Positions 21,530 through 33,849 of a stretch of 33,849 nt of DNA are shown here, one piece after another. The notes beneath the pieces are model-generated. The model was not told where the DNA came from. It saw only the letters and a program-made list of their open reading frames with translations, and did not search any database. Numbering within the stretch: position 1 is the stretch's first letter; each line of letters starts with the position of its first letter. The stretch covers positions 1 to 33,849 of the IMG/VR virus record IMGVR_UViG_3300043120_000151; one strand, 5' to 3'. This DNA comes from a virus (lineage: Duplodnaviria > Caudoviricetes). A program made the translations under genes and the position numbers.

Positions 21530-21775
21530 ATGGCTGACATAATAGACACCGCCAGCGAGCAGGAAACGCGCGAACGGGAGGCGGCCATATCCGCCGCCGT
21601 GGTTGAACTGAACTACCCCGCGCCGGAGTATGAGCACGGGGTGGCGATGTGCGTTGACTGCGGTGAGCCCATACCGGCCGAGCGGATCAGGGCTATGCCT
21701 GCCTGCGGGCTGTGCGTGGAATGTGCTGAAGAATGGGCGCAGGAACAGGCGCGTATGCAGGGGCTGGCAGCGTAA
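21530..21775 (+). CDS. TraR/DksA family C4 zinc-finger protein
   Basis: N-terminal MADIIDTASE (DxxDxA) and CVDCGEPIPAERIRAMPACGLCVEC. Confidence 0.92.
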   Translation: MADIIDTASEQETREREAAISAAVVELNYPAPEYEHGVAMCVDCGEPIPAERIRAMPACGLCVECAEEWAQEQARMQGLAA

Positions 21776-21787
21776 GATACGGTGAGA

Positions 21788-21813
21788 GAAAAGCCCCCTT
21801 TCGGGGGCTTTTC
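21788..21813. terminator. Bidirectional intrinsic terminator
   Basis: GAAAAGCCCCC-TTTC-GGGGGCTTTTC between convergent genes. Confidence 0.9.
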
Positions 21814-21985
21814 ATTTCTCGTGATTCTCTGCACGGGTAATTTTCTCGTACCAGTCTGCGATTGCTTCCTCAACCGCCTGCCCGATGGTGATTCCCTGCA
21901 TGGCGGCCGCGGCTTTGATCTTGCGGCGGGTGTCTTCGGAAACGCCTTTTACCTGCCACGGGGGGATTGGTTTGGTGGTGGTCAT
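21812..21985 (-). CDS. Small ribbon-helix-helix-like regulator (57 aa), Aca-like position
   Basis: PWQVKGVSEDTRRKIKAAAAMQGITIGQAVEEAI strand-helix-helix pattern; AGGA RBS before ATG 21985. Confidence 0.7.
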   Translation of the reverse strand: MTTTKPIPPWQVKGVSEDTRRKIKAAAAMQGITIGQAVEEAIADWYEKITRAENHEK

Positions 21986-21995
21986 GGTTTGCGTC

Positions 21996-22217
21996 CTAGC
22001 GTTCATCGATCTTTATGTATGCAGCATCATCCCAAGGGTACATACCAGCATCGTCTATGTCGTCTACGCCGGGGAGATCAGAAAAGTCCCACGTCACGCG
22101 TACATCGTTGCCGTTGTTGTCCGTACCAGATGCTGCAAACTCATACATGGCGCGGTTGGTAGGCTCTGCGTCCGTCAGAGTGTAAGCTGTACCGTTGATG
22201 GTGATCTGAGTAGCCAT
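21996..22217 (-). CDS. Small acidic protein (73 aa), candidate anti-defence / anti-CRISPR
   Basis: AAGGAG RBS; 15 D/E versus 4 K/R; first gene behind a near-consensus promoter. The CDS is well supported, the function is inferred. Confidence 0.7.
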   Translation of the reverse strand: MATQITINGTAYTLTDAEPTNRAMYEFAASGTDNNGNDVRVTWDFSDLPGVDDIDDAGMYPWDDAAYIKIDER

Positions 22218-22270
22218 GTTTTATCTCCTTGGTTTGTTCCGGCTGCCCCATTGCTGCCGTTGTTGAGTAC

Positions 22271-22299
22271 ATACTAGTAATGCCAGCACTACCTGTCAA
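22271..22299 (-). promoter_or_regulatory. Strong sigma70 promoter with operator palindrome in the spacer
   Basis: Minus strand TTGACA-17 bp-TAGTAT; spacer contains GTAGTGC-TG-GCATTAC (1 mismatch); AT-rich UP-like tract at 22311-22330. Confidence 0.85.
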
Positions 22300-22320: not shown

Positions 22321-22359
22321 AAAAAAAGAATACGCCCCCGCTCCAACCGGAACGGGGGC
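22321..22359 (-). terminator. Intrinsic terminator after the PAS-HTH gene
   Basis: Minus strand GCCCCCGTTCC-GGTT-GGAGCGGGGGC then GTATTCTTTTTTT. Confidence 0.7.
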
Positions 22360-22370
22360 TTTGCTGTTTG

Positions 22371-23288
22371 TTACTCCCTATCCTCCCTCTTCGGCGCGCC
22401 CCTGCCCGTGAGCAGCCAGTCCGCGCTTGCCCCTGTGCGGTTGAAACAATCCACTATCCAGCCGGGCGGCACGTCGTCTGCCTGCCGCCTGCGGCTGATG
22501 GTTGTGGGGCTCACCCCCATGGCTCTGGCCAGCGCGGCCGCGCTCGGCACATCGTATGCCAGCATGAGCCTGTCCACTATCTGCTCACCCACGGGACCGA
22601 GCAGTCTGGTGGTGGAGTAATAGCGACCCGTGCCACTCTCGCCCATGCGGTAGACAATGCGCACCACCACCCGCCGCATGCCCGTGCGGCGCTGGCCCGT
22701 CACCTGCCCGATAATTACCTGCCCCGGCCGCGCCTTGGCCTGCTCGAACCTCTCGCGCAGCATTTCCGCTTCGCCGCCGTGCACAAGGTCCGTTGCCAGC
22801 TGCCCTGTGCTGGTACGGGCAATGCTGTCTCTGTCGCCCTGCGCGGCGAGGATGCGGTAATCCTCGTTGAGTATCCACAGGTTATCCACGGGGCTGCCTG
22901 CAATCTGCCGGGCATATTGCAGCTCAAGCGCCAGATACTGCGCCAGCGGCAGCACAGTGGTTATGCTGCCGGCAAGGCTTTGGGCATCGTCCGGAGTATA
23001 TGCGGGGCATGTTTCCCAGCGCACCGGCACGGGCCTGCCGCCTGCGGTGATAATGATATCCGCCGCGCAGCTGCGCCGCGAATCCAGCGCGGTATCGTCC
23101 ACAGTCTGCGGGCTGGCATCCACAGGCGCAAGGTGGGCTGGCAGGCCCAGAGTGCGCGGGTTGCCCCACAATTTGAGGAATGCGGTGTTGGCATGCTCCA
23201 CCATGCCTGCGGCATCGCGCAGCACGGCGGGGCGTTCCATTGCGTCCACGAGAGACGCGAGTACGGTTGCAATAGTCTGATGTACCAC
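22371..23288 (-). CDS. PAS-PAS-HTH regulator with C-terminal phage CI-type HTH
   Basis: LVDAMERPAVLRDAAGMVEHANTAFLKLWG (PAS start); second PAS-like region (LWILNEDYRIL...DLVH...ERFEQAK); C-terminal IVDRLMLAY...ALARAMGVSPTTISRR...SADWLLTG. Start codon uncertain. Confidence 0.75.
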   Translation of the reverse strand: MVHQTIATVLASLVDAMERPAVLRDAAGMVEHANTAFLKLWGNPRTLGLPAHLAPVDASPQTVDDTALDSRRSCAADIIITAGGRPVPVRWETCPAYTPDDAQSLAGSITTVLPLAQYLALELQYARQIAGSPVDNLWILNEDYRILAAQGDRDSIARTSTGQLATDLVHGGEAEMLRERFEQAKARPGQVIIGQVTGQRRTGMRRVVVRIVYRMGESGTGRYYSTTRLLGPVGEQIVDRLMLAYDVPSAAALARAMGVSPTTISRRRQADDVPPGWIVDCFNRTGASADWLLTGRGAPKREDRE

Positions 23289-23425
23289 GATTGACCCTGA
23301 AGTTGATTTGTTGACCTACGCGCACCTTGTATATCATGCGGGCGGGTTTGTGTTGACTATATGTTATCAGTACATGCTATGCGGATTACCTATCTCATTG
23401 TCCTGATAACAGTATGGAGGATGGT

Positions 23426-23656
23426 ATGGCGGATGATACGACCGAGGGAAGGCGCCCCGGCTGCATGGCAGCCGAGCTGCGGGGTGGATCTGCTGCGCTC
23501 GCGCTGGTGCGGCAGCATGTGGGGGATGATGCAGGGCATGTGCTGCTGCTGGTGCAGCGCAGCATGGAGGCGATGGCCACAGCCTGCATAGCGGGGGATT
23601 GCACGCGCTGCAAGACGGCGACAGGAGGGCGCTGCCCTCTGGCAGGGGATAACTGA
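23426..23656 (+). CDS. Small Cys-containing protein (76 aa) divergent from the PAS-HTH gene
   Basis: GGAGG RBS 5 nt before ATG 23426; C-x4-C-x2-C-x7-C tail; own terminator downstream. Confidence 0.6.
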   Translation: MADDTTEGRRPGCMAAELRGGSAALALVRQHVGDDAGHVLLLVQRSMEAMATACIAGDCTRCKTATGGRCPLAGDN

Positions 23657-23693
23657 TTTGGAGGGGGCTATAAAGCGGGGGTGGAAAATGAGA

Positions 23694-23728
23694 GCGGCGG
23701 CCGCGCTGGGGTAGCGGGCCGCCGTTTT
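23694..23728 (+). terminator. Intrinsic terminator between the small ORF and the convergent lipoprotein gene
   Basis: GCGGCGGCC(G)CGCT-loop-AGCGGGCCGCCGT followed by a T run. Confidence 0.65.
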
Positions 23729-23729
23729 G

Positions 23730-24338
23730 TTACTTGAAGGGCTTTAGCATTTTGTATGAGACTTCGATGTTTGAAGCCTTGAGGATTTCAAACCGTGCGC
23801 CTTTTACCCCGACTACCGGATCTTCCGAAATATCGAAGGTCAGGTCTTGGCTGTAACTCGGTCGGGCCATGTCGTTGGTAAATTCCCGATAGGAAAAGTA
23901 CACGTTGTCTTTGCTCCTGCCATTATAGAGCAGTTGCTGGCGGAAATAGTTTGAGGACTGCAGCACAATGTCCTTGGTTACAGTCTTTGCCCCAATCTTT
24001 TCCAGAGCACCGGCAAGGCCGAGCTTGTCAAAATAAATCTCTTGCATGTGCGGGGGCATGATGCCCTGCCTGCACAGGATATAGCGCCCCTTGTATCTTT
24101 CGATAAACACGTCGCCTACAGCAAGCTGAGTTGCGTTGTCGGCAGGAAGCTCGACAACCTCAATCCCCTGATACACGGCCAAAGTACCTTGGTCGCACAT
24201 TGGGTCGCCTACCTCCACGGTATGGACCTCCCCGATCTTCGGGAAGTCCGCGCTTTTGTAGGTTGGCGGGATTGGTTCCAGTGTTGCGCAAGCAGTAAGC
24301 AACAGCAGCAGTAAAGCAGAACAGATAGCCCTGATCAC
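23730..24338 (-). CDS. Lipoprotein probably co-transcribed with the repressor (candidate superinfection exclusion)
   Basis: MIRAICSALLLLLLTA-C lipobox; 17 bp downstream of the repressor stop; AAGGGGG RBS; looks lower in GC than its neighbours. Confidence 0.8.
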   Translation of the reverse strand: MIRAICSALLLLLLTACATLEPIPPTYKSADFPKIGEVHTVEVGDPMCDQGTLAVYQGIEVVELPADNATQLAVGDVFIERYKGRYILCRQGIMPPHMQEIYFDKLGLAGALEKIGAKTVTKDIVLQSSNYFRQQLLYNGRSKDNVYFSYREFTNDMARPSYSQDLTFDISEDPVVGVKGARFEILKASNIEVSYKMLKPFK

Positions 24339-24355: not shown

Positions 24356-25357
24356 TTACGCCCGCCTCTTCACATATACGACAGGCGCAATCACGGTAAC
24401 GGATTTTCTATCCACATCCAAATGGAAAACACCCGCGCCGTTGCGCTTGGGCAGCCAGCCATGCAACCTCACCATGCCTTTACGGTCCGGTGAATCGCCG
24501 AGCCACAGCTTGATGGTGGCCCGCCCATCTGCTTCCACATACACGGCGTCGCCTTGTTCCGGTGCGCGGTCGGGGTCGCAGTAGCAGACCATGCCCTCGC
24601 GGATGCCCTCCGGCAGCATGCTATCCCCCACGGGCAGCGCGGCAAAGGCGCGCGGGCCTAAGCCTGCCAGCCTGTCCACATCCACGGCCATGCGGCGGCC
24701 TGTTTCCCACCCCTGCACACCACATGGAGCAAGGCCGGTAACCGGAAGCTTGCCAATAGCCGCAGCCTGCAGGGGCGGGACGGGGGGTATCAAATTTTGC
24801 ACGGCAGTTGTCAAAGATTCCTTGTCTACTGCCGTCTGCTGGGTTGCCTTCTTTCCATCCATGCCCGTGCGCGGGTCGCCCATGCCGAGCAGAAGCCAAT
24901 CCGGATGCAGGCCGAACACGCTGGCCAGCTTTTCCAGATCATCACTGCTGGGGCGCTGCCCCTTCTTCCATGCCTGATGCTTGCCGTGGGTAATGCCCGC
25001 TTCCTTGGCGAACTGCAGTTCGCTCATGGGCAGCTGGTTGTCTGCGGCGAACTTCTTCCACGCCTTCATGATCACGGGATATTGCGCGGCCCAATCTGCG
25101 CGCGGGGCATCGTCCGGAATGGTGCGGCCTTCGGGCTGGCCCTCGCCTGTGAGCAGCCATGTGGGGGAGATGCCGCACTTGCGGGCAATGGATTCGAGAT
25201 CGTTGGCGCTTGGGCGCTGCCCCGTCTTCCAGACATGAACCTTGCTCGTAGACTCCCCAAGGAAGTCGGAAACACCCTTCCCACTTCGCGACACATTATC
25301 AGAAATCTTGAAAATAATTTCTGAAATAATTTCAAATTGTTTGGCGAAGTTTTGCAT
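24356..25357 (-). CDS. CI-like repressor with two tandem HTH domains and S24 peptidase domain
   Basis: Two WKxGQRPSxxDL...GxxPxWLLxGxGxP units; APCG cleavage-type site; GDSM Ser motif and ATIK Lys motif. Start at 25357 is supported by alignment of the two units. Confidence 0.9.
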   Translation of the reverse strand: MQNFAKQFEIISEIIFKISDNVSRSGKGVSDFLGESTSKVHVWKTGQRPSANDLESIARKCGISPTWLLTGEGQPEGRTIPDDAPRADWAAQYPVIMKAWKKFAADNQLPMSELQFAKEAGITHGKHQAWKKGQRPSSDDLEKLASVFGLHPDWLLLGMGDPRTGMDGKKATQQTAVDKESLTTAVQNLIPPVPPLQAAAIGKLPVTGLAPCGVQGWETGRRMAVDVDRLAGLGPRAFAALPVGDSMLPEGIREGMVCYCDPDRAPEQGDAVYVEADGRATIKLWLGDSPDRKGMVRLHGWLPKRNGAGVFHLDVDRKSVTVIAPVVYVKRRA

Positions 25358-25369
25358 AATTATAAAACC

Positions 25370-32185: not shown

Positions 32186-32473
32186 ATGACACAGGTTATC
32201 GTCATGACTCCGGAAGAGGTGCAGGATCTCATCCGTACCACGGTTGAACAAGCTGTTGCGGCAAGGGCGGCGCTTCCTGCTCCCAAAAGGCTGATGACAG
32301 TGGAGCAGGTGGAAGAAGAGTACGGCCTGAACAAGAAGAATCTGGAACGCTGGCGCTCTGCGGGCGAGGGGCCGCCGTACTCGAAGATAGGAAAGCGGGT
32401 GTTCTACCAGCGTGCGGAATTGGAGAAGTTCGTGGAGGAAAACAGGATTCTGACTACCGGGAGGGCTGCCTAG
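32186..32473 (+). CDS. xis: Excisionase-like HTH (MerR/HTH_17 type)
   Basis: LMTVEQVEEEYGL.KKNLERWR..GEGP.Y.KIGKRVFY...LEKFV; adjacent to the integrase. Confidence 0.85.
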   Translation: MTQVIVMTPEEVQDLIRTTVEQAVAARAALPAPKRLMTVEQVEEEYGLNKKNLERWRSAGEGPPYSKIGKRVFYQRAELEKFVEENRILTTGRAA

Positions 32474-33681
32474 CCATGTGCCGAATTCAGCGTGGAGTCG
32501 ATAATGGACAGGCGCTTTCGTTCCTGCCCCGGTATCAGGTGGGCATACCGCTGCGTCATGGACAGCGTTCTGTGCCGCATGAGGGTCTTCAATTCGATCA
32601 GCGATACTTCTCCGCTCTGGGCAAGCCAGCTGCCGAAGGTGTGGCGAAGCGTGTGGAAGGTAATCGCGAATCGCGAATCGCCGCCGCTGGTGTCTATGCC
32701 GAGTTCGTGCACTGTGCGCATGAAGGTGTCGCTGATCCGGTCCACAGGTTCGCCGCTGTCGCCGCGCTTCTGAAAAATGTATTCGCTGCCGGTGCGGCCG
32801 TATTCCATCAGCATGGCGATAATATCGTCCGGCGCGTGGATGGACTCCATTTTGCCACCCTTTGCCGTGATGTGCAGCACACCTGCCTGTGCGTTTACAT
32901 CCTGCCCGCGCAGCTTGAATATCTCGGTGGCGCGTATGCCCGTCTTGAGCGACAGGTACGCCATGTCATGCAGTTGCGGGCTTTTCTCGCGCAGGCTGGC
33001 GAGCAGGGCGGTTGCTTCCTGCGGGGTGAAGAAGCGCAGGCGTCCGTTTTCAACCTTTGGCATCTGCCATGCCCCGTTCTGTCTGCTGGAAAACGGGTTG
33101 CTGCCGTTCCAGTCTCCCGTGGCTATGGCTCTGTTGACGGCGCGGCGGAGAAAGCTGAACTGGTGGGCGATGGTCTGCGGAGAAAGAGTTCGTGCAGGGG
33201 GAGCAACATAGCCTGCCTTAATGCGTTTGGGCGTTTTGAGTTCCGCCCGTGTGTTGGCAAGCTCGGCTTTGATGCTGGACAGGACACCCGCTGTGATGGC
33301 GGTTATGGGCATGGCGTGGAGCTTGGCGCGCAAGTGCTTGTCGTACTGCTGCATGGGGCGGTCTACATGCTTGCCTTCTGCGCTGGCCCATACGGCGTAA
33401 GCGTCTACCGCCTGACCGACAGTGAACTGGACGCGCCGGGCAGGGTTCGTTCCCGCTTCAAGCTGGGCAAGGAACTCGCTTCTGGCTTGCCGAGCGAACT
33501 GAGGGCGAACCCCCTTGCTGTGTCTGCCAACGGTTTTCCAGTGGCCTTTGCCTGCGGCATCACTCCACCAGAAACAATACACGCGGTCCGGCTCGCCGGT
33601 GCGGGCATCCTTCTTCTGGGACAGGCGATAGTACACGCCGTCGAACTTTGTTTTGATGTATTTTCTGCTCTGCGCTGCCAT
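32470..33681 (-). CDS. int: Tyrosine recombinase / phage integrase
   Basis: TGIRATEI (R), AKGG (K), FHTLRHTFG (HxxR), MRH and TQRYAH (Y). Confidence 0.97.
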   Translation of the reverse strand: MAAQSRKYIKTKFDGVYYRLSQKKDARTGEPDRVYCFWWSDAAGKGHWKTVGRHSKGVRPQFARQARSEFLAQLEAGTNPARRVQFTVGQAVDAYAVWASAEGKHVDRPMQQYDKHLRAKLHAMPITAITAGVLSSIKAELANTRAELKTPKRIKAGYVAPPARTLSPQTIAHQFSFLRRAVNRAIATGDWNGSNPFSSRQNGAWQMPKVENGRLRFFTPQEATALLASLREKSPQLHDMAYLSLKTGIRATEIFKLRGQDVNAQAGVLHITAKGGKMESIHAPDDIIAMLMEYGRTGSEYIFQKRGDSGEPVDRISDTFMRTVHELGIDTSGGDSRFAITFHTLRHTFGSWLAQSGEVSLIELKTLMRHRTLSMTQRYAHLIPGQERKRLSIIDSTLNSAHG

Positions 33682-33788: not shown

Positions 33789-33849
33789 TGGTGGGTCGTG
33801 CGGGGCTCGAACCTGCGACTCTCTGCTTAAAAGGCAGATACTCTACCGA
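33789..33849 (-). tRNA. tRNA-Lys(TTT), 5' part outside the window; integration site
   Basis: Minus strand ...TCGGTAGAGTA TCTGC-CTTTTAA-GCAGA GAGTC GCAGG-TTCGAGC-CCCGC ACGACCC A CCA: anticodon TTT, T-loop and encoded CCA. Confidence 0.95.

Follow-up and report, generated by a model that had tools for sequence, protein, structure and literature searches.

A tandem-PAS regulator facing a small gene, with predicted operators between them, in prophages of Desulfovibrionaceae

Introduction

VqmA is said to combine one PAS domain with a LuxR-type helix-turn-helix (HTH) and to bind DPO, and the antirepressors of the 186 Tum, Gifsy and N15 types are reportedly LexA-controlled. The characterised examples of ligand-sensing induction modules come from linear plasmid phages infecting Vibrio and Aeromonas, with more predicted elsewhere (accessible text of PMC10432266). 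In phage VP882, which has an S24-type cI, the PAS-containing VqmA(Phage) faces the small gene qtip (available portions of 10.1101/2022.09.16.508337 and PMC12802170). The same layout, a regulator divergent from a small ORF, defines the tested TF-smORF modules (available portion of 10.1101/2022.09.16.508337), in which specificity is set by a few recognition-helix residues (accessible text of PMC10432266).

The module described here is real and conserved: a sensor gene and a small gene, with predicted operators, arranged like VqmA-Qtip and lying outside that family. It was found in a 33.8-kb virus record (IMGVR_UViG_3300043120_000151; 33,849 nucleotides, all of which is referred to as the window). 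Like VqmA(Phage)-Qtip it pairs a PAS-containing factor with a facing small gene, and the phage has a cI of the S24 type, but it has two PAS domains and an HTH of the phage 186 CI type, and is carried by integrated prophages of Desulfovibrionaceae rather than linear plasmid phages. As far as the accessible text on the TF-smORF modules goes (phages 72, 63, Apop and ARM81ld; Silpe et al.), the divergent regulator, the small ORF without a family and the absence of homology between the small ORFs of different clades are common to both. In contrast to those modules, the one in the window has a built-in tandem-PAS sensor, lacks a repA-telN or par context and shows no linear plasmid-like phage character; the family described here also occurs beside repressors without a peptidase domain, which the available part of the TF-smORF study set aside. 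The literature covered, with few subscription papers and no supplements, described neither a module of the PAS-PAS-CI-HTH kind nor any Desulfovibrio prophage in which a sensor is paired with a small ORF, and the available part of the main text of PMC6006170 mentions neither PAS nor antirepressors.

Results

Organisation of the window

Head and tail gene blocks in the window are followed by accessory genes, cI-cro-CII and the early region, then by an integrase gene and a terminal tRNA fragment. The main features are as follows.

22334..22359, minus strand: intrinsic-terminator-like hairpin 3′ of the regulator gene (z -3.9)
22371..23288, minus strand: PAS-PAS-HTH regulator, 305 aa, GTG start, with PAS-A (about residues 10-115), PAS-B (132-230) and 186-CI-type HTH (237-299), from Pfam, an AlphaFold model, structure comparison and profile search
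23291..23325, no strand: tandem pair of imperfect palindromes with half-site TTGAC and a spacer of 5-6 bp; predicted regulator operators
23353..23383, plus strand: candidate small-ORF promoter (putative assignment): TTGACT, 19-bp spacer, weak extended -10
23416..23420, plus strand: GGAGG ribosome-binding site of the small ORF, from the sequence and from SD-like motifs before the small ORF in related loci
23426..23656, plus strand: small ORF, 76 aa, ATG at 23426, stop at 23654-23656, CxxC tail, from coding-selection and homology tests
23690..23729, no strand: hairpin separating the small ORF from the lipoprotein gene that converges on it (z -2.65 on the plus strand, -4.74 on the minus strand), likely a bidirectional terminator
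23730..24338, minus strand: lipoprotein-like accessory gene, 202 aa, phrog_1353; outside the conserved module, replaced or absent in relatives
24356..25360, minus strand: cI, two HTH domains and S24 peptidase (Pfam); candidate target of the small protein
32470-33681, minus strand: integrase, tyrosine-recombinase motifs read by eye in the translation
33792-33849: tRNA fragment (att) at the window end

A first-pass annotation had proposed that a divergent pair of genes, bounded by terminators, lies about 0.7 kb from the end of cI in an integrated prophage. All of this held up: hairpins flank the pair on both sides, 700 bp separate the cI stop (24356) from the small-ORF stop, with the 202-aa lipoprotein-like gene in between, and the integrase together with the tRNA fragment is consistent with an integrating phage. 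Relatives of the module sit within chromosomal contigs, the closest named protein (83% identity) is from Desulfovibrio mangrovi, and all genome matches fall within the family and order to which a genome labelled Desulfovibrionaceae belongs. Elsewhere in the window, a DksA/TraR-type zinc-finger gene (21530-21775; also present in L001 and L003) closes the tail operon, and a separate small leftward unit (21812-22299) lies between two terminators, with a promoter-like site (22299-22271), a 73-aa ORF and a 64-aa ribbon-helix-helix-like ORF; L001 has a 98-aa ORF in its place.

The regulator

The C-terminal HTH of the 305-aa minus-strand protein, described as CI-type in the first-pass annotation, matches Pfam Phage_CI_repr (PF07022; residues 237-299, E 8e-11), and its best solved relative in a profile search is phage 186 CI (2fjr, E 1e-9). 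The two proteins share this HTH family, but in 186 CI it is the N-terminal domain, whereas here it follows two PAS domains at the C-terminal end of a protein that is not the immunity repressor. Single-sequence Pfam matches to the PAS part were weak (PAS_8, E 0.018, under the cut-off). The two PAS folds proposed earlier were recovered by structure and family profile: tandem-PAS structures (LOV-PAS, FixL; E ~3e-9) headed the Foldseek matches of an AlphaFold model built from five sequences (mean pLDDT 70.7; residues 1-52 weak), VIA-align superposed residues 132-230 on a PAS-B domain (Z 14.3, rmsd 2.1 over 99 residues) and tandem Cache/PAS domains on residues 1-231, and a 15-sequence family profile matched PAS domains in its N-terminal part (3ewk, E 1.5e-6; 4gw9 over profile positions 7-118, E 4e-5).

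The best-kept PAS-B residues are Asp135 (42/44 sequences) and Trp138 (37/44). A LOV or haem-PAS identity was considered and rejected, both signatures being missing in the 44 sequences: none has the LOV Cys motif, and no His or Cys column of the haem-ligand type in the PAS region is conserved in more than 12. Membership of the VqmA family was likewise rejected, the HTH being PF07022 with no Pfam match to a LuxR-type HTH; no VqmA chain appeared among the 50 profile matches listed or the listed fold matches. The earlier comparison with VqmA-Qtip stands for the divergent layout and, through the covariation described below, very likely for control of the small ORF by the regulator.

Conservation and distribution of the pair

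Within Desulfovibrionaceae the divergent pair is present at 14 phage-type loci, in unrelated phage types and with regulator identity down to ~20%; its conservation across prophages, asked about at the outset, is supported. In all 14 with upstream DNA (the window, L001, L007, L008, L048, L004, L006, L009 and L051-L056; the L001 ORF is cut by a contig end) an oppositely oriented ORF of 57-101 codons starts 121-185 nt away from the regulator. L001 and L007 differ from the window by at most 6%. Not counted were L003, which starts inside the gene, and two loci identical to the window, L002 and L005. The carriers differ in head and tail gene sets, and neighbouring accessory genes change while the divergent pair stays.

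At E<=1e-30, 40 representatives were recovered by a full profile search, 34 of them single-stretch proteins of 235-314 aa. When the best five candidates per genome were scored, at least 13 two-PAS regulator genes were found in at least 11 of 401 family genomes, nine of the 13 with phage genes around them. The other four, in G081, G158, G032 and (as a split copy) G126, have no evident phage genes nearby. With all candidates scored, the regulator was present in 2/14 and 5/26 genomes of two genera, a patchy occurrence as expected of a mobile gene. At two of these four non-phage loci the facing gene is a lone HTH gene; the other two have no comparable neighbour. L049:9131-10446, L050:885-2342 and L058:8948-9840 hold two-PAS regulators outside evident prophages; two of them face a lone same-family HTH gene of 85-104 aa and one is split into two frames. 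With P0046, one distant family member, as query, none of 85 matching records from isolated phages covered 80% of it; scans of viral contigs with distant family members gave no new context, recovering the L056 locus again.

The small ORF

The small ORF (23426-23656, plus strand) is a real gene under purifying selection, as homology, selection and ribosome-binding sites attest, and the divergent 76-aa ORF with GGAGG and a Cys tail seen in the first pass is confirmed. Its dN/dS was 0.23-0.33 against three relatives; across nine pairs values were 0.05-0.33 in six, 0.64 in one and saturated in two. The other two frames across its span contain stops in 6/6 loci checked, and a second, distinct 76-aa ORF (23361-23591) is present in another frame. 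It is 26-27% identical to the small ORFs of L004, L006 and L009 (z 6.4 against L004 and 6.1 against L009; 0/300 shuffles as good), and small-ORF identity tracks regulator identity in the clade of the window (83/66% and 40/26%). The arrangement resembles the TF-smORF modules in that the factor is divergent from the small ORF in 14/14 loci and the small ORF is real and without a known domain.

The product is predicted to form a two-helix hairpin (H14-29, H34-55), with the Cys tail modelled at low confidence. No family was found in Pfam, PHROG or NCBIfam; a fold search gave no match at E<=0.001 in BFVD and no usable match in the Atlas, and PADLOC gave no match for the regulator or four small ORFs, a weak negative. 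The Cys tail is limited to the clade of the window and missing from the small ORFs of L051-L056, so the suggestion that the tail senses redox state has no family-wide basis and was dropped. Between the clade of the window and that of L051-L055 the small ORFs show no profile similarity (hhalign probability 0.1%), and a single family for all of them is unsupported, the pooled alignment (A5) recovering only its own members. A small ORF of L055, from a phage with a short repressor, resembles that of L052, which has an S24 repressor (z 6.1).

Helical small ORFs like that of the module are also found next to a BRO-N/ANT antirepressor gene or as the first gene of an early operon: in L056 (11167-12415) a homolog lies directly behind the BRO-N/ANT antirepressor (z 6.6 to the L054 small ORF), and in L055 (11698-11883) one heads the ERF early operon (z 15.9).

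Intergenic sites and recognition-helix covariation

The intergenic alignment revealed a pair of imperfect 15-bp palindromes, spaced 19-20 bp, at the regulator start, followed by a TTGAC element. In the window the palindromes (23291..23325) overlap the ribosome-binding region of the regulator, and the -35 of the candidate small-ORF promoter doubles as a third operator-like site (23353-23367). Phage 186 CI reportedly binds inverted repeats with a similar half-site. The tandem palindromes scored better than 500 shuffles (p<=0.014) in 11/15 loci, p-values that are optimistic because the motifs were chosen from these same sequences; they were not found in L056, L049, L050 or L059. With a leave-one-out matrix the intergenic pair ranked top in all four phage stretches scanned, narrowly so in the window (14.7, next site 14.6), and no second tandem operator was prominent elsewhere in these stretches. 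Direct action of the regulator on the cI-cro switch was rejected, there being no operator-like site there in the stretches scanned. Nor is a CI operator proposed in the small-ORF promoter, since the repeated 10-mer (23388, 25407) is not conserved between cI and cro in L048.

The third base of the palindrome follows one recognition-helix residue, Arg with G and Asn with C. The phage Ser-Arg regulators (window, L048, L004 and L054) have G, the phage Ser-Asn regulators (L051-L053) have C, and L055, with an Ala-Ala helix, has A; L009 has no strict-pattern site and L008 is cut before the helix. L054 groups with the Ser-Asn clade of L051-L053 in the tree, yet carries Arg and G. Host relatives, with the third position left free, served as an independent check on this rule: the helix is Ser-Asn in 20/20 and C stands at the free position in 74/78 half-sites (39 sites, 20 loci). 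Related sequences share states, so this covariation represents few independent changes rather than dozens.

Together, the palindromes and the helix covariation make the sites likely operators of the regulator and the facing gene its likely target. Judged from these patterns, there is good reason to regard the palindromes as the regulator's operators, where binding would damp its own expression, and the regulator very likely controls the small gene. The sign of this control is read from geometry, which on balance favours activation over repression: the centre of operator 2 falls near -72 relative to a weak promoter whose spacer is 19 bp long, and such a position is typical of class I activators. 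Against a simple activation geometry are the third operator-like site over the -35 and the spacing of the promoter in L051-L054, which differs from that in the window, so that the activator geometry is not uniform.

Repressors and the neighbourhood of cI

The cI of the window scores over the cut-off for Peptidase_S24, with the Ser and Lys motifs conserved. Cys-Gly is the cleavage site of S24 proteases; the presumed site is Cys-Gly in the window cI and Cys-Ser in L048, and between these two proteins the first HTH differs (55% identity over the first 80 residues) while the second is almost identical. The S24 domains of the clade of the window and that of L051-L055 are 33-43% identical. The first-pass annotation placed the module near the repressor, which applies to most carriers: of the 12 loci with context, 9 have an S24-type cI no more than about 3 kb away. 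It does not apply to L054 (~30 kb away), L055 or L056. No gene separates module and cI in L004, L009 and L053, and elsewhere the intervening accessory genes vary.

The apparent repressors of L054 and L055, so assigned from their position, are short (119 and 114 aa), related to each other (E 1e-6) and without a peptidase domain; an autoproteolytic cI is present in the window and lacking in these two, which have a common repressor type and different small-ORF types. Repressors without a peptidase domain need a helper for inactivation. The carrier phages have CP76-type CII genes, and in L053 (12397-14196) an NAD-dependent DNA ligase gene follows a CII-like gene in the early region. The tail-cI junction is a hotspot for accessory genes (an AbiE pair, DUF4875, a nuclease); in L054 (10665-12370) an AbiEi/AbiEii toxin-antitoxin pair lies directly past the module at the prophage end.

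Canonical LexA, taken as a DNA-binding domain over the Pfam cut-off that a divergent LexA could escape, was found in none of five host genomes (G237, G001, G321, G353 and G256, the window's own host not being among them) and in 9 of 14 controls; RecA is present in all five. The module is like the LexA-controlled antirepressors in having an antirepressor-sized gene with its own promoter at the phage edge or immunity region, but the sites upstream of this gene follow the helix of the neighbouring regulator.

Host relatives facing fadL

A longer chromosomal relative (~550-660 aa) faces a FadL/OmpP1 gene in 20/21 loci examined. The phage regulator corresponds to the last two PAS domains and HTH of this four-PAS protein (profile match 99.6% over residues 235-545 of a 551-aa host protein). 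These multi-PAS and PF07022 regulators of Desulfovibrionales have the same divergent layout and 15-bp palindromes, but differ in extra N-terminal PAS domains, in operators 30 bp apart rather than 19-20, and in facing a transporter gene. L060 (6786-9994) and L095-L115 mostly have a pair of TTCAY-N5-NTGAA palindromes at a distance of 30 bp, together with a sigma-70 promoter close to consensus. This is apparently an undescribed regulon; the literature search found no paper characterising a multi-PAS and PF07022 regulator facing fadL.

Discussion

In the mechanism proposed here, the PAS-PAS-HTH protein would bind the two palindromes at its own start and, on sensing a ligand or cell state, would activate the facing small gene, whose helical product would then turn the prophage lytic; the most likely route would be inactivation, with no cleavage, of the phage repressor. 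The antirepressor step is proposed by analogy only. Taken as a whole, with the small protein as antirepressor, this is the best explanation of the module, held tentatively and at a little under an even chance. A link to induction is supported by the nearness of an S24-type cI in 9/12 loci with variable genes in between, by the spread of the module over different phage types, including two with peptidase-less repressors, by the tested hosts being without canonical LexA and by small-ORF homologs in early operons. It is weakened by the poor pairing of small-ORF type with repressor type, by a site that is an accessory-gene hotspot and by a regulator family that also serves host genes: 4/13 two-PAS genes are chromosomal and host four-PAS forms face fadL, so the family is not tied to phage decisions.

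Alternatively, the small protein could serve lysogenic conversion, acting on the host or on superinfecting phages through exclusion, growth arrest or metabolic adjustment. The module sits amid lipoproteins, a nuclease and an AbiE pair, lies ~30 kb from the repressor in L054 and has small ORFs that do not follow repressor type, and host relatives regulate an outer-membrane channel gene; however, the neighbouring accessory genes turn over while the module persists, homologs of the small ORF are found in early lytic operons and PADLOC matched neither regulator nor small ORFs (a weak negative), which leaves conversion a possible but doubtful reading. The positional evidence would also fit a small protein that protects CI or supports CII under the sensed condition, and these phages do have CP76-type CII genes. 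The homologs in early operons beside an ANT antirepressor speak against such a pro-lysogenic role, as does the pro-lytic action of all TF-smORF modules described in the available portion of 10.1101/2022.09.16.508337, and it appears improbable. Small-ORF identity following regulator identity in the clade of the window, and the lone same-family HTH that takes the place of the facing gene in L049 and L050, could alternatively reflect closed feedback, the small protein binding the PAS regulator as anti-activator or co-factor or being a second-tier regulator, with the output elsewhere; no outside target is evident, since no second tandem operator is prominent in the four phage stretches, and this appears quite improbable.

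Antirepression can also be joined with the host relatives in a broader and still more speculative account, which is unlikely to hold in all its parts: temperate phages of sulfate reducers would have borrowed from a host sensor, one that faces a fatty-acid-type outer-membrane channel gene, its HTH and last two PAS domains, re-tuned one helix residue, in some lineages only, to private operators and wired the sensor to interchangeable small antirepressors. The inducing cue would then be chemical, possibly a lipid or other hydrophobic signal, and no DNA damage would be needed. If so, even prophages with non-cleavable repressors in LexA-less hosts would have a chemical trigger.

What is new here is the pair of tandem palindromes at the regulator start whose third base follows a recognition-helix residue. 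Should the module induce lysis, the principle of ligand-sensing induction would reach integrated prophages of anaerobic sulfate reducers; it would have arisen there independently, from a one-component sensor of the host, and would give an indication of a natural inducing cue. Prophage induction free of DNA damage would become testable in sulfate reducers, and this could be relevant to controlling the bacteria responsible for souring and corrosion. Under the alternative explanations as well, the module represents a sensor family carried by phages that has not been described before, one that has predicted operators and a specificity code of a single residue.
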